Shown here: positions 10,884 to 17,059 of the stretch, in pieces
Layout: every line of letters begins with the position of its first letter
Numbering within the stretch: position 1 is the first letter of the stretch
IMG/VR virus record: IMGVR_UViG_3300045988_145635
From: a virus
Taxonomy: Duplodnaviria; Heunggongvirae; Uroviricota; Caudoviricetes
Strand: one strand, 5' to 3'
DNA: 64,000 nucleotides
Made by a program: the position numbers and the translations under genes
The notes under the pieces: generated by a model
The model's input: the letters and a program-made list of their open reading frames with translations, nothing else
Told to the model about the DNA's origin: nothing
The model's database searches: none

Positions 10884-11536
10884 TGACCACCGTTAACAAT
10901 AAGAAATGCTACCCAAGCGAGAAATATCTTAATGAGCTGATCACCAACATTGAGTTTGCTGCAAGGGCACCAGTTGAAGTCGTGAGAGCGATTGCAGCAG
11001 AGCTACAGAAGCACCGTAAGGCCTATGCCAATACAGCAGCAACTAAGGATGGTTGGATAAGCTGTAGTGAGCGAATGCCTGTAATTGGCGAGCTAAATTG
11101 GAGAACTAGTTTTCCTTTACTGGTTACGTGTGAGATCGGCGTTATACCTGCTTATTACGGCTTTGTGAGCGTTAATGGTGATAGGCATTATGGCTTTATG
11201 GAGAGTCTTAAATACGGAGACGATAACGGCAACCATCCTCAAACTAATGAATATGGTCTGATTAGCAATGTCACACACTGGATGCCACTACCAGAACGCC
11301 GCAGGAGTCGAACAGTGAATAAAGCAGAGTTATTTCAGAAAATATCGGCTCTCGCGACTGAATGCCACGCTATAGCATCTGAGCTTGATGTTGGCGATGA
11401 ACGAACCGAGATGTTCGAAATATACAGTGTGCTGCGCAATCTCTGTCGGCGTGGCTACGCCACTCAAGTAGGGCGAATGACTAACCCACTACTCTCATCC
11501 TGTGATGAGGATGACTCGGATGAGGATGACGAATGA
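10883..11536 (+). CDS. DUF551-like phage protein with acidic C-terminal tail
   Basis: WISCSERMP ... THWMPLPE resembles the DUF551 signature as I recall it; TAATG coupling. Confidence 0.45.
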   Translation: MTTVNNKKCYPSEKYLNELITNIEFAARAPVEVVRAIAAELQKHRKAYANTAATKDGWISCSERMPVIGELNWRTSFPLLVTCEIGVIPAYYGFVSVNGDRHYGFMESLKYGDDNGNHPQTNEYGLISNVTHWMPLPERRRSRTVNKAELFQKISALATECHAIASELDVGDERTEMFEIYSVLRNLCRRGYATQVGRMTNPLLSSCDEDDSDEDDE

Positions 11537-11916
11537 TGCATAAATCAGTAGCCGGTGAGTTTCAGAAGGAAGTCGATAATACCACTGATCTATTGGACGA
11601 TATTTTAAGCATTCTCGCGCTGCTTGAGGCTGGCGATTGGTCAGAACATTGCACTAAAACAGAGCTAGGCGGTCGGCTTGAAAGAGAGATTACACGACTG
11701 ATTAGCGATGCCCAAAATGATTTGTCACCTGAGCATCTCCCCTGCGATGTAGTTCTTGTGCCAGGGATGAGGATACACGAAGGCGTCAGAACGAAAACAT
11801 TATTAACCGCATTACAGAGAAGAGCCGAACTAAGCTCGCGGATAAAGTTGATGCCATCCAAAATATTTGATGTCGTCAAATTTATGCCATCGCAACATAC
11901 TGAGAGAGATAAATGA
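11533..11916 (+). CDS. Hypothetical protein
   Basis: ATGA overlap with upstream gene. Confidence 0.5.
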   Translation: MMHKSVAGEFQKEVDNTTDLLDDILSILALLEAGDWSEHCTKTELGGRLEREITRLISDAQNDLSPEHLPCDVVLVPGMRIHEGVRTKTLLTALQRRAELSSRIKLMPSKIFDVVKFMPSQHTERDK

Positions 11917-12539
11917 GCACGGTAGCGAAAGATCTCACAGAAGATATTCTCAATGAAATTATTGCTGGTGCAAATACCTCGCTTGAGCAACTTCTTGCGT
12001 TAGCACTGAGAGCCGAACGTCGAGACAGAAATCGTTTTTATGAGCGATTACCAGGGAAGCGACCAGATAGATCGGATGAAGAAGGTTGCGATATAGACTA
12101 CATGGAGCCTTCAGAGATTTATCAACTTGGTAAAGATGACGGCTGGAACGCTTATCACGATGCTGTGATGAAGTTGGATGAAAAAGTTAAACCTCTTTCT
12201 CGACCGGTAGATCACGGTTTCCGCGATAACTGCGAATGCTCTAGTTGCCAGACCACGGCCCGTATTTGTTCCGAATTGACAGATAAGTCCAGCCTAATCT
12301 ACGAAGTTAATGTAGGCGGTAATACATGGGTCGAATGCACAAGAGCTGCATACGTAAGAGCAAAAGACAAGGGTGAATTAACCAGAGTTGTTACCAATCA
12401 CCCAAATAATGAGCTTAAAGATCACCAGATTCGAGAACTGGTGAACGAGTTGAGAGATATTGCGGTTCAGTACCACGGAACGCAGCAATTGCGGGAGAAG
12501 ATTGCCAGAGCAGTGAACAACTCAGTCCGTAAAAAATAA
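11913..12539 (+). CDS. Hypothetical protein
   Basis: ATGA overlap with upstream gene; followed by a hairpin terminator. Confidence 0.5.
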   Translation: MSTVAKDLTEDILNEIIAGANTSLEQLLALALRAERRDRNRFYERLPGKRPDRSDEEGCDIDYMEPSEIYQLGKDDGWNAYHDAVMKLDEKVKPLSRPVDHGFRDNCECSSCQTTARICSELTDKSSLIYEVNVGGNTWVECTRAAYVRAKDKGELTRVVTNHPNNELKDHQIRELVNELRDIAVQYHGTQQLREKIARAVNNSVRKK

Positions 12540-12556
12540 GCAATAGTACGATAAAG

Positions 12557-12583
12557 AGGCCCCATGCTCTTGATGGGGCCTGT
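12557..12583 (+). terminator. Factor-independent terminator closing the left-arm operon
   Basis: AGGCCCCA-loop-TGGGGCCT stem followed by a T. Confidence 0.5.
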
Positions 12584-13304
12584 AGCAACTAGCGTTATGG
12601 ACGCTGGTTTACGTACTCAATGATCGCTTTGATAATCGCGAACATCGGCGGCACGATTTTGAACAGTAAGTTAACCATAACAGGCCTCACTTAGTTTTAT
12701 CGCGCCTAGCTGCAAATACCTTTGGGCTTGCCTTTGCAGTTGCAATATCTGTAGTCGCCAGATACTTACGGCACGATTTCGAGTTAAGGTAAGGTTTTAG
12801 AGTCACCAAAAACCTGGACTTAAATCTTCTTTGAGAACAACGATGTTTAGTAAATGGTCATTATTACCTGGTATGACCACTCAACGTTTCTTGATGAATC
12901 CAGTACATTCGGTTAATCTTAATTCAGTCGCCAGATACTTATGGCTCAGGAACAGAGCCGCAAACTCTGTTTCCTTTTAAAAAGCCCAGCCTAGTCAACT
13001 GGGCTTTTTAATGTCTATTTTTAACCCAATGAACCTTCAATACCGCAACATCAGTGTCTTGCGAATTAAGATAGTGTGTATAGGTTATGCATGCAAGTGC
13101 ATAACTCTGTGGATAACTCAGGAAGGAAAAAGTAGCTTCCGCGCAATTTAGGCCAGACAAGGCTTTCGCAAAAGTCAACAGAGAGAAAAAATTTGTTAAA
13201 AATAACGTTTGTTGGAATTGTATATATTTATGCCTTTCAATAGTTAGCATCTTATTAACATCTTTTTTAAGAGATAGAGTTCAAAAATATATAGCTTCAA
13301 CATA

Positions 13305-13324
13305 TACTGTATGTGTATACAGTA
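13305..13324 (+). promoter_or_regulatory. LexA (SOS) box
   Basis: TACTGTATGTGTATACAGTA fits CTGT-N8-ACAG; 17 nt upstream of the UmuD-prime-like start. Confidence 0.65.
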
Positions 13325-13340
13325 TTAAGAGGCGAGTATT

Positions 13341-13730
13341 ATGGGCTTCCCTTCTCCTGCGGCGGATTATGCTGAGAGCCGTATTTCTCTTGATCAGCAG
13401 ATAATTAGACATCCTTCAGCGACCTACTTCATGAGGGCAGCTGATAGTCATCATCGTGAGGGAATATTGCAGGGCGCATTGCTGGTGGTCGATTCCTCAC
13501 TTACCCCGGTTGATGGTTCTCTGCTTGTATGCGCTCTGGATGGGGAATATCGCGTAAAAAGATACCGGAAGTATCCACGTCAGCATCTGGAGGATTTAAG
13601 AACTGGTAAGAAGGAAGCATTGCCAAAGGATGACGATGGATGCACGGGCAGCAATGCCGTGTTTGGTGTGATCACTCACATTATCAACGACGCAAGAAGT
13701 GGCGAGTTTGATGATTGTCCTGTGATGTAG
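13341..13730 (+). CDS. UmuD-prime-like S24 peptidase-family protein (HumD-like, pre-truncated UmuD mimic)
   Basis: Begins MGFPSPAADY, i.e. at the position of the UmuD self-cleavage site; conserved Ser (ADS) and Lys (VKRYRK) positions; SOS box upstream. Confidence 0.7.
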   Translation: MGFPSPAADYAESRISLDQQIIRHPSATYFMRAADSHHREGILQGALLVVDSSLTPVDGSLLVCALDGEYRVKRYRKYPRQHLEDLRTGKKEALPKDDDGCTGSNAVFGVITHIINDARSGEFDDCPVM

Positions 13731-13767
13731 GAGAACTGTTTAGGTGGTGCAATGCACCACCTTTTTA

Positions 13768-14868
13768 TCACACTGCGCGGAATGCGATTTCGCCAGGTAT
13801 TACTTCACCTTGCCAATACATTTGGGCAGCAACGCGATCTGCGAGGTCACGATAAATAGCCGTAAATTCGCTATCTGGACGACTAATAACGGTTGGTGTT
13901 CCGTTATCCAGATCTTCACGAAGAGAGATATGAAGTGGCATTTGGCCTAACAACTGCGTGTTGTATTTCTCGGCCAGTTTCTGTGCGCCACCGGTGCCAA
14001 AAATTGGCTCGTGATGACCGCAGTTACTGCAAATATGCACACTCATGTTTTCGACGATACCCAGTACCGGCACTTCGACTTTTTCGAACATCACAATGCC
14101 TTTCTTCGCATCGATCAGCGCGATGTCTTGCGGCGTAGTTACCACAACCGCACCAGTTACAGGAATGTTCTGCGCCAGCGTCAACTGAATATCACCAGTG
14201 CCCGGCGGCATATCGAGAACGAGATAGTCCAGATCAGGCCATAGAGTTTCCTGCAACATCTGCATCAGCGCCTTGCTGGCCATCGGTCCACGCCACACCA
14301 TTGCATTGTCGTCGGTGACCAGATAACCAATAGAGTTGGTTGCCAGGCCATGAGACATGATAGGTGCCATGTGAGTACCGTCCGGTGAGGTTGGACGTTG
14401 GTTTTCCGCGCCCAGCATGGTTGGAATTGATGGACCATAGATATCGGCATCCAAAATACCAACTTTCGCACCTTCAGCAGCCAACGCCAGTGCCAGATTT
14501 ACCGCCGTGGAGGATTTACCTACGCCGCCCTTGCCTGAGCTGACGGCGATAATGTTCTTAACGCCATTAATGCCTGGTTGGTTTTTGACGCGCTTAAGCG
14601 TGGCAATGTTGTACGACAGCTTCCAGTCAATAGCCTTTGCGCCAGTGATACGGAGCAGATCACCACTACATTGCTCTTTCAGGTCTTCAAAAGGCTTATT
14701 CCACACGAAAGGCATGATTAGTTCGACATGCAGTGTGTCATCCATCAACGCAACATGGTGTAACGCTTTAAGCGTAGTCAGGTTGTGTTTCAGGGTTGGG
14801 TGCTGAAAATTAGCCAGCGTACCGGCTACCATTGCTCTCAGGGCATCCGGCGATTTGGACTCGCTCAT
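13768..14868 (-). CDS. apbC: Fe-S cluster carrier ATPase ApbC (Mrp)
   Basis: 366 aa; Walker A SSGKGGVGKSS, CxxC (CSNCGH); near-identical over its length to enterobacterial Mrp as I recall it. Confidence 0.93.
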   Translation of the reverse strand: MSESKSPDALRAMVAGTLANFQHPTLKHNLTTLKALHHVALMDDTLHVELIMPFVWNKPFEDLKEQCSGDLLRITGAKAIDWKLSYNIATLKRVKNQPGINGVKNIIAVSSGKGGVGKSSTAVNLALALAAEGAKVGILDADIYGPSIPTMLGAENQRPTSPDGTHMAPIMSHGLATNSIGYLVTDDNAMVWRGPMASKALMQMLQETLWPDLDYLVLDMPPGTGDIQLTLAQNIPVTGAVVVTTPQDIALIDAKKGIVMFEKVEVPVLGIVENMSVHICSNCGHHEPIFGTGGAQKLAEKYNTQLLGQMPLHISLREDLDNGTPTVISRPDSEFTAIYRDLADRVAAQMYWQGEVIPGEIAFRAV

Positions 14869-15025: not shown

Positions 15026-17059
15026 ATGACCCAAGTCGCGAAGAAAATTCTGGTGACGTGCGCGCTGCCGTACGCTAACGGCTCAATCCACCTCGGCCAT
15101 ATGCTGGAGCACATCCAGGCTGATGTCTGGGTTCGTTACCAGCGAATGCGCGGCCACGAGGTTAATTTCATCTGTGCCGACGATGCCCACGGTACGCCGA
15201 TCATGCTGAAAGCGCAGCAGCTTGGTATCACACCGGAGCAGATGATTGGCGAAATGAGTCAGGAACACCAGACTGATTTCGCAGGCTTTAACATCAGCTA
15301 TGACAACTATCACTCGACGCACAGCGAAGAGAACCGTCAGTTGTCTGAGCTTATCTATACTCGCCTGAAAGAGAACGGTTTTATTAAAAACCGCACTATC
15401 TCTCAGTTGTACGACCCGGAAAAAGGCATGTTCCTGCCGGATCGTTTTGTAAAAGGCACCTGCCCGAAATGTAAAGCGCCAGATCAATACGGCGATAACT
15501 GTGAAGTCTGCGGCGCAACATATAGCCCGACTGAATTGATCGAGCCGAAATCGGTGGTTTCTGGCGCTACCCCGGTAATGCGTGATTCCGAACACTTCTT
15601 CTTTGATCTGCCTTCTTTCAGCGAAATGTTGCAGGCATGGACCCGCAGCGGCGCGTTGCAGGAGCAGGTGGCGAACAAAATGCAGGAATGGTTTGAATCC
15701 GGCCTGCAACAGTGGGATATCTCCCGCGATGCGCCTTACTTCGGTTTTGAAATTCCGGACGCGCCGGGCAAATATTTCTACGTCTGGCTGGACGCGCCGA
15801 TTGGCTACATGGGTTCCTTCAAGAATCTGTGCGACAAGCGCGGCGATACCACCAGCTTCGATGAATACTGGAAGAAAGACTCCACCGCCGAGCTGTACCA
15901 CTTCATCGGTAAAGATATTGTTTACTTCCACAGCCTGTTCTGGCCTGCCATGCTGGAAGGCAGCAACTTCCGCAAGCCGACCAACCTGTTTGTTCACGGC
16001 TATGTGACAGTGAACGGCGCGAAGATGTCCAAGTCTCGCGGTACCTTTATTAAAGCCAGCACCTGGCTGAATCATTTTGACGCCGACAGCCTGCGTTACT
16101 ACTACACTGCGAAACTCTCTTCGCGCATTGATGATATCGATCTCAACCTGGAGGATTTCGTTCAGCGCGTGAATGCCGATATCGTGAACAAAGTGGTTAA
16201 CCTGGCCTCCCGTAATGCAGGCTTTATCAACAAGCGTTTTGACGGCGTGCTGGCAAGCGAACTGGCTGACCCGCAACTGTACAAAACCTTTACTGATGCC
16301 GCTGAAGTGATTGGCGAAGCATGGGAAAGCCGCGAATTTGGTAAAGCTATCCGTGAAATCATGGCATTGGCTGACCTGGCTAACCGCTATGTCGATGAAC
16401 AGGCTCCGTGGGTGGTGGCGAAGCAGGAAGGGCGCGATGCCGATCTGCAGGCGATTTGCTCTATGGGCATTAACCTGTTCCGCGTGCTGATGACGTACCT
16501 GAAACCGGTACTGCCGAAACTGACTGAACGTGCAGAAGCATTCCTGAATACAGAACTGACCTGGGATGGTATCCAGCAACCGCTGCTGGGCCATAAAGTG
16601 AATCCGTTCAAGGCACTGTATAACCGTATCGATATGAAACAGGTGGAAGCACTGGTGGAAGCATCCAAAGAAGAAGTGAAAGCCACAGCCGCACCGGTAA
16701 CTGGCCCACTGGCTGACGACCCGATTCAGGAAACCATCACCTTTGACGACTTCGCCAAAGTTGACCTGCGTGTGGCGCTGATTGAAAACGCGGAGTTTGT
16801 TGAAGGCTCTGACAAACTGCTGCGTCTGACACTGGATCTCGGTGGGGAAAAGCGTAATGTCTTCTCAGGCATCCGTTCTGCTTATCCCGACCCACAGGCA
16901 TTGATTGGTCGTCACACCATTATGGTGGCTAACCTGGCTCCGCGTAAAATGCGCTTCGGTATCTCCGAAGGCATGGTGATGGCTGCTGGCCCCGGCGGGA
17001 AAGATATCTTCCTGTTAAGCCCGGATGCTGGTGCTAAACCTGGCCACCAGGTTAAGTAA
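15026..17059 (+). CDS. metG: Methionine--tRNA ligase
   Basis: HIGH motif (ANGSIHLGH), KMSKS motif, zinc knuckles CPKC/CEVC, C-terminal tRNA-binding domain; start chosen at [11 protein letters not shown] (the ORF-track start at 14897 is an upstream extension). Confidence 0.96.

Follow-up and report, generated by a model that had tools for sequence, protein, structure and literature searches.

The 64,000-nucleotide (64-kb) stretch of viral DNA analyzed here, hereafter the window, carries an ordinary and already catalogued copy of humD, a gene that encodes a UmuD' subunit of error-prone DNA polymerase V. The gene is known, has its own NCBI family model, and is nothing new by itself. With a probability of roughly 0.85, we read it as a LexA-repressed single-gene cassette whose product, a UmuD homologue made in the cleaved form, joins the UmuC protein of the host in a translesion polymerase resembling Pol V. 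In the undamaged cell, LexA bound to a box that overlaps the -10 region would keep transcription of humD low. Upon DNA damage RecA would be activated, LexA would cleave itself, and humD would be transcribed. HumD would then be translated directly in the 'cleaved' UmuD' form, presumably dimerize as UmuD' does, and assemble with host UmuC, which is also SOS-induced, into the polymerase. The slow RecA-dependent cleavage of UmuD to UmuD', the normal delay of mutagenic bypass, would be skipped, and a phage-plasmid of about 110 kb and its host could both benefit from lesion bypass and mutagenesis during SOS. That HumD partners with UmuC and makes activation through RecA unnecessary is inferred from P1 HumD and from the biochemistry of UmuD' and Pol V, and the function proposed for the window protein is transferred from P1 HumD, from which it differs at 11 of 129 residues.

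The humD gene and its closest relatives

The coding sequence (13341..13730, plus strand) specifies a protein of 129 aa that starts with MGFPSPAADY, as the first-pass annotation had read it, and ends with the C-terminal extension SGEFDDCPVM. In alignments with Escherichia coli UmuD, Met1 of HumD falls on Cys24 and Gly2 on Gly25, the two residues that flank the RecA-stimulated cleavage site of UmuD. The start had been placed at this very position before, and the alignments bear it out: HumD has neither the N-terminal arm nor the cleavage site, and its translation begins at the equivalent of UmuD Gly25. A longer gene extended upstream, which had been named as a competing reading, is excluded because an in-frame TAA lies at 13326, five codons 5' of the ATG, and there are no alternative starts in between. 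One tblastn alignment of UmuD reached 57 nt 5' of the ATG (to 13284); it crosses both the TAA stop and the LexA box, and was rejected as spurious and as evidence of a hidden N-terminal arm.

With the NCBIfam equivalog NF051876 ("HumD family translesion DNA polymerase") the protein aligns over residues 1-129 of 129 and scores 219.8 bits against a cut-off of 120. It scores 87 bits with the UmuD subfamily model NF007621, below the cut-off of 110, and 27 bits with the LexA model TIGR00498 (cut-off 111). It also matches Pfam PF00717 (Peptidase_S24). The protein is set apart from UmuD, the autoproteolytic Pol V subunit, by that lower score and by the absence of arm and cleavage site, and from repressors of the LexA/CI type by having the S24 core only, with no N-terminal DNA-binding domain. 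Its best solved relatives are UmuD' structures, with PDB 1UMU at E 6.7e-23. An AlphaFold2 model based on 98 aligned sequences could not be used (mean pLDDT 49.6, with tail and N-terminus under 50), and it is the sequence match to 1UMU that points to a fold homologous to UmuD'. CYRAN_98 of the phage-plasmid Cyrano (pLF82) is 100% identical to the window protein, the HumD proteins of P1-type phage-plasmids are about 91-93% identical, and RefSeq already lists the identical protein WP_000506720.1 under the name "HumD family translesion DNA polymerase". Many of 561 related 90%-identity clusters bear the HumD name.

HumD was reportedly characterized in P1 in 1999, and the title of the paper by McLenigan et al. 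of that year states that HumD facilitates SOS mutagenesis. The P1 protein (AAQ14181) has the same length as that of the window, and 118 of 129 residues are identical (91.5%). This identity and the NF051876 score uphold the proposal of the first-pass annotation that the gene encodes an already activated UmuD' form like that of P1. The two proteins share the MGFPSPAADY start and the C-terminal ARSGEFDDCPV(M/I), and both genes have a LexA box just 5' and no adjacent umuC. The central four bases of the P1 box are unlike those of the window box. P1 is a myovirus whereas the element in the window is an SSU5-like siphovirus phage-plasmid, and the P1 neighbors lxr, hot and phd-doc are replaced here by an ea-type region and apbC-metG. 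Nucleotide similarity to P1 runs from the LexA box to the humD stop codon with none beyond, so the box plus humD behaves as a mobile cassette. The P1 record notes that HumD "functionally complements E. coli UmuD'", and substitution for UmuD' in UmuC-dependent SOS mutagenesis is known for P1 HumD only (PMC7092418; P1 record note). In a CRISPRi screen P1 humD was dispensable for lytic growth (PMC10695390), which fits an accessory gene.

Compared with E. coli UmuD' (PDB 1UMU, 1I4V), HumD has a homologous core of the S24 fold with the same initial Gly, and Ser36 and Lys73 are the equivalents of the catalytic Ser60 and Lys97 of UmuD. The GDSM motif of UmuD is changed to ADSH, with a one-residue deletion before the Ser, and HumD has a 4-residue insertion and a 10-residue C-terminal extension. 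UmuD' arises by RecA-stimulated cleavage and HumD by direct translation; umuD forms an operon with umuC, whereas humD has no such operon. A checkpoint role is a property of uncleaved UmuD with its N-terminal arm. The earlier suggestion of a mutagenesis or checkpoint accessory therefore holds in its first half, a translesion role of the UmuD' type being expected, and lapses in its second, since HumD lacks the arm. Finally, the comparison of humD with its P1 counterpart gave a dN/dS of 0.052 (dS 0.80); the gene is consequently under strong purifying selection and is no decaying fragment.

Operator, promoter and expression

A LexA operator TACTGTATGTGTATACAGTA is predicted at 13305..13324 (plus strand). 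It matches the LexA consensus TACTGTATATATATACAGTA at 18 of 20 positions, with both mismatches in the variable center, and is the only match with three or fewer mismatches in the 64-kb window (none of 100 shuffles had any) as well as the only CTGT-N8-ACAG site. The near-perfect box described by the first-pass annotation is accordingly there and unique, and its distance to the humD ATG is 16 nt and not 17 as then counted. A predicted sigma-70 promoter (13280..13308, plus strand; TTCAAA, a 17-nt spacer, TATACT; 9/12 in a consensus scan) is the only promoter-like site near humD, and its -10 hexamer (13303-13308) is overlapped by the LexA box. The layout of this putative operator within the promoter region is as in the annotation of P1, where a "LexA binding site in the regulatory region of lxr and humD" lies 19 nt before the ATG. 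A Shine-Dalgarno sequence, AAGAGG (13328..13333, plus strand), read directly from the sequence, stands 7 nt before the ATG. Downstream, between humD and the convergent apbC, a terminator scan found an intrinsic terminator (13742..13762, plus strand), a hairpin with a 9-bp stem, 6 G-C pairs and a 3-nt loop that is followed by TTTTAT; the T-run is present on the plus strand only.

Expression of an identical locus has been published. Cyrano and the window are 100% identical in the 765 nt 5' of the LexA box, in the box and in the protein, which makes the LF82 RNA-seq (GSE154648), as reanalyzed in PMC9928086 (S1/S4 Tables; units of log2(fpkm+5)), directly relevant to humD of the window. In those data humD is co-induced with SOS genes (PMC9928086). 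CYRAN_98 stood at 7.44 / 6.94 in LB and rose in macrophages to 11.37 / 11.30 at 1 h and 12.12 / 12.31 at 6 h. Between LB and 6 h in macrophages, host umuD rose from about 5.4 to 8.9, umuC from about 3.4 to 6.4, sulA from about 7.2 to 9.9 and dinI from about 7.3 to 10.2. Of the flanking genes, CYRAN_97 went only from about 5.0 to 7.0, and CYRAN_99 and CYRAN_100 were slightly down (all PMC9928086). Because the host SOS genes rise in the same samples and the flanking genes do not follow, the data support an independent, SOS-linked induction of humD of about 30-fold inside macrophages, the link to SOS being correlative. The humD transcript reached about 10-fold the level of host umuD in macrophages (LF82, PMC9928086 data). 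In samples B1 and B6, however, humD was already 4- to 6-fold up (about 9-9.9) while host SOS genes were not, and basal expression in LB was appreciable, at 148 normalized reads (PMC9928086). These two observations indicate that LexA may not be the sole input to humD, or that its repression may be incomplete, the plasmid being present at about 5.5 copies.

The phage-plasmid and the neighborhood of humD

The window is an SSU5-like phage-plasmid of E. coli. This identity follows from synteny with plasmid pMB3825A_2 and with Cyrano, with which it shares thymidylate synthase, dihydrofolate reductase, terminase, a siphovirus tail module, ParB and a UvsW-like helicase, and from the description of Cyrano as an SSU5-like phage-plasmid (PMC9928086). 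In light of that synteny P1 itself was rejected as the element, as was a prophage lying beside the chromosomal apbC, given that the SSU5-like phage-plasmid itself carries apbC-metG.

No umuC partner was found, as the first-pass annotation had claimed. A tblastn search of the window with E. coli UmuC gave a best E of 0.27, the ORFs of at least 250 aa in the window contain no Y-family polymerase domain, and tblastn found no UmuC homologue in the complete Cyrano genome. If it acts like P1 HumD, the protein must therefore use the UmuC of the host.

On the 3' side the previously noted apbC does adjoin the gene (13768..14868, minus strand), converging on humD and lying 37 nt after its stop; it is paired with metG (about 15026..17059, plus strand), and the pair is complete and of host type. 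The apbC(mrp)-metG pair is 88% identical at the nucleotide level to E. coli K-12 over a span of exactly those two genes, with amino acid identities of 347/369 for ApbC and 668/677 for MetG. From these values the pair is a diverged, selected second copy, plasmid cargo and not host chromosome. The pair recurs in 4 SSU5-like phage records and, at 96-99% identity, in some 190 plasmids that measure 107-115 kb. The apbC gene of Cyrano is wrongly annotated as MinD and appears among the listed morons. A search of the literature for a connection of SSU5 phage-plasmids with metG or methionyl-tRNA synthetase returned nothing.

On the 5' side, the stretch of about 800 bp that precedes humD (12540..13304) has no annotated gene in either related record. 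Searches with tblastn for homologues of P1 Lxr, phiKO2 DinI and HK140 DinI found none in the window, so this gene-free stretch is no degraded lxr or dinI, and there was no Rfam match across the whole window. The stretch contains a terminator-like hairpin (12988-13005) and a DnaA box TTATCCACA (13108-13116, minus strand), the only perfect one of the window, at least one of which was also present in 38 of 100 shuffles. Its last part (13092-13304) matches the upf region of P7, and of some P1 variants, at 84% identity, and the annotation of the P1 counterpart notes a similarity to an E. coli region that has two DnaA boxes.

A segment of 2.8 kb (11047..13831), which comprises two ORFs of the ea region, the gene-free stretch and humD, has a 99.35% identical counterpart on the chromosome of E. 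coli SB0258h1 (L014 4148..6932), within a lambdoid/P22-like prophage integrated at tRNA-Thr/proA. The match extends 64 nt into the 3' end of apbC and stops there. The prophage consequently keeps an apbC remnant, which suggests a recent transfer of the humD module from plasmid to prophage.

Several features of the relatives deserve mention. In pMB3825A_2 (L003 1-5000), CTX-M-14 and IS903B are inserted beside the thymidylate synthase/dfrA51 region, so this lineage of phage-plasmids also spreads ESBL genes. Cyrano encodes a UvsY-like mediator, a gp32-like SSB and an unusually long RecA-like protein of 779 aa (L017 52241-57404), together with homologues of Pol III alpha and epsilon. Its genome has one other LexA-like box, TACTGTTTACTTATACAGTG (L016 41044-41063), with 4 mismatches, which lies 26 nt 5' of the 'integrase' CYRAN_44 and beside the putative repressor CYRAN_45. 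Cyrano is induced 39-fold by ciprofloxacin (PMC9928086), and this second box may relate to that induction.

A recurrent class of pre-truncated proteins and the roles open to it

We compared the start, upstream frame, operator and neighbor of the gene in eight other phages: P1, N15, phiKO2, HK639, HK140, yong1, Oslo and ENT39118. In the first six (yong1 being a Hafnia phage) the gene is an orphan that starts at the Gly25 equivalent, and in most of these a LexA box lies 14-19 nt 5'; the boxes upstream in N15, HK639 and yong1 are similar to that of the window. N15 gp26, phiKO2 gp23 and the UmuD-like proteins of HK639 and HK140 are pre-truncated, have 127-129 aa and the acidic tail of HumD, and are 64-71% identical to it, with Thr as the Ser60 equivalent. 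Most of their genes are LexA-boxed morons near the end of the late region or in the att/par region. The umuDC-type operons of Salmonella phage Oslo and Cronobacter phage ENT39118 are also LexA-boxed and encode proteins of the same superfamily, but these are full-length UmuD with the arm, a Cys/Ala-Gly site, their own umuC directly 3' and no acidic tail. Further umuDC-type operons borne by phages or plasmids are mucAB and rumAB. In an exhaustive search, 44 of the best 150 representatives at 50% identity started with the GFPSPA motif (42 of them exactly as M-GFPS), and the exact MG.PSPA start was present in 105 of 120 proteins of the close-homologue set. The pre-truncated form that lacks umuC is consequently a recurrent and well-populated class.

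The tail of HumD ends in ARSGEFDDCPVM (13698..13727, residues 120-129), a 10-residue extension absent from UmuD. E122 and D124 never vary in 98 close relatives, and F123, D125, C126, P127 and V128 are each kept in at least 90% of them. The pattern in pre-truncated proteins of the family is ND-A-R-x-G-E-F-D-D-C-P-V-M, more distant phage members end in EFDDNPCM or EWDDLPVI, and one representative at 50% identity has the C-terminus EFDDTPF. Of the complete representatives at 50% identity, 6 of the 12 truncated-type proteins had the tail, against none of the 18 that are N-extended (Fisher p 0.0016, the sequences being non-independent). Since this conserved tail has no counterpart in UmuD', HumD may act beyond surrogacy for UmuD'.

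One such action would make HumD mainly a modulator of RecA filaments or of the SOS response and not a polymerase subunit, with mutagenesis as a side effect; it could reduce recombination or prophage induction, or use the acidic tail to bind proteins that interact with SSB. The near invariance of EFDDCPVM and its confinement, among the proteins sampled, to those of truncated type agree with this proposal, as do the dinI homologue (a RecA-filament modulator) that adjoins the gene in phiKO2 and HK140, the annotated LexA site between that homologue and the umuD-like gene in phiKO2, and the RecA-like, gp32-like SSB and UvsY proteins that the SSU5-like element itself has. The tail also loosely resembles DDDIPF, the C-terminal tip of SSB (motif from PMC5872125), but the similarity is short and the Pro is one residue out of register. 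The P1 record, however, has HumD functionally complementing UmuD', the title of the 1999 paper has it facilitating SOS mutagenesis, the window is without homologues of dinI and lxr, and the idea was not found in the literature searched. We regard this role as unlikely. We hold it still more doubtful that the tail functionally mimics the acidic C-terminal tip of SSB (MDFDDDIPF), for which tail conservation and the short resemblance speak and on which no literature was found for HumD. If mimicry were real, the tail could tether a phage-made UmuD' surrogate to the SSB-binding pockets of replication or repair proteins, or compete with SSB for them, and HumD would then have a function, in recruitment or against the host, that is missing from UmuD'.

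That HumD works as an active S24 peptidase, or as a self-cleaving repressor like LexA or CI, is very improbable. The Pfam match, the retained Ser60 and Lys97 equivalents, and database names such as 'LexA-like peptidase S24' and 'LexA family transcriptional regulator' are compatible with it. Against it, the 129 residues span only the S24 catalytic-core fold and include neither a DNA-binding domain nor a cleavage-site region, the score with the LexA model is far below its cut-off, and G-D-S-M has become A-D-S-H. The pattern of the catalytic residues in the family bears on the same question. Position 36 is Ser or Thr and position 73 is Lys in close relatives, whereas in more distant truncated, orphan phage relatives the Ser site is occupied by Thr, Tyr or Gln and the Lys site by Met or Arg. 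As these do not keep it, the Ser-Lys dyad is probably dispensable in HumD-type proteins, and its loss is to be expected where a protein made in the cleaved form has no self-cleavage to perform. The first-pass annotation had proposed that absence of the catalytic Ser and Lys would speak against its identification. Both residues are present; their loss would in any case be no valid argument, to judge from the orphan relatives without the dyad and from the fact that a pre-cleaved protein needs no protease activity.

Lastly, a decaying remnant of a umuDC operon, truncated at its 5' end, to which the short length relative to UmuD and the missing umuC might point, is refuted by the low dN/dS, by a start conserved in most close homologues and recurrent among the best representatives, by the Shine-Dalgarno sequence, promoter, LexA box and terminator that humD has of its own, and by its strong transcription in LF82.

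What is useful about the finding is its epidemiological context. Sequenced SSU5-like phage-plasmids with this same cassette number about 200; they are 107-115 kb long and belong to E. coli, Shigella and E. albertii. Some of these phage-plasmids bear resistance genes such as CTX-M-14, and LF82, in which humD is induced about 30-fold inside macrophages, is a Crohn's-associated strain. If HumD removes the delay that RecA-dependent cleavage imposes on polymerase V, genotoxic stress could raise the mutation rate of carriers more than that of other cells, an idea that is not conceptually new.
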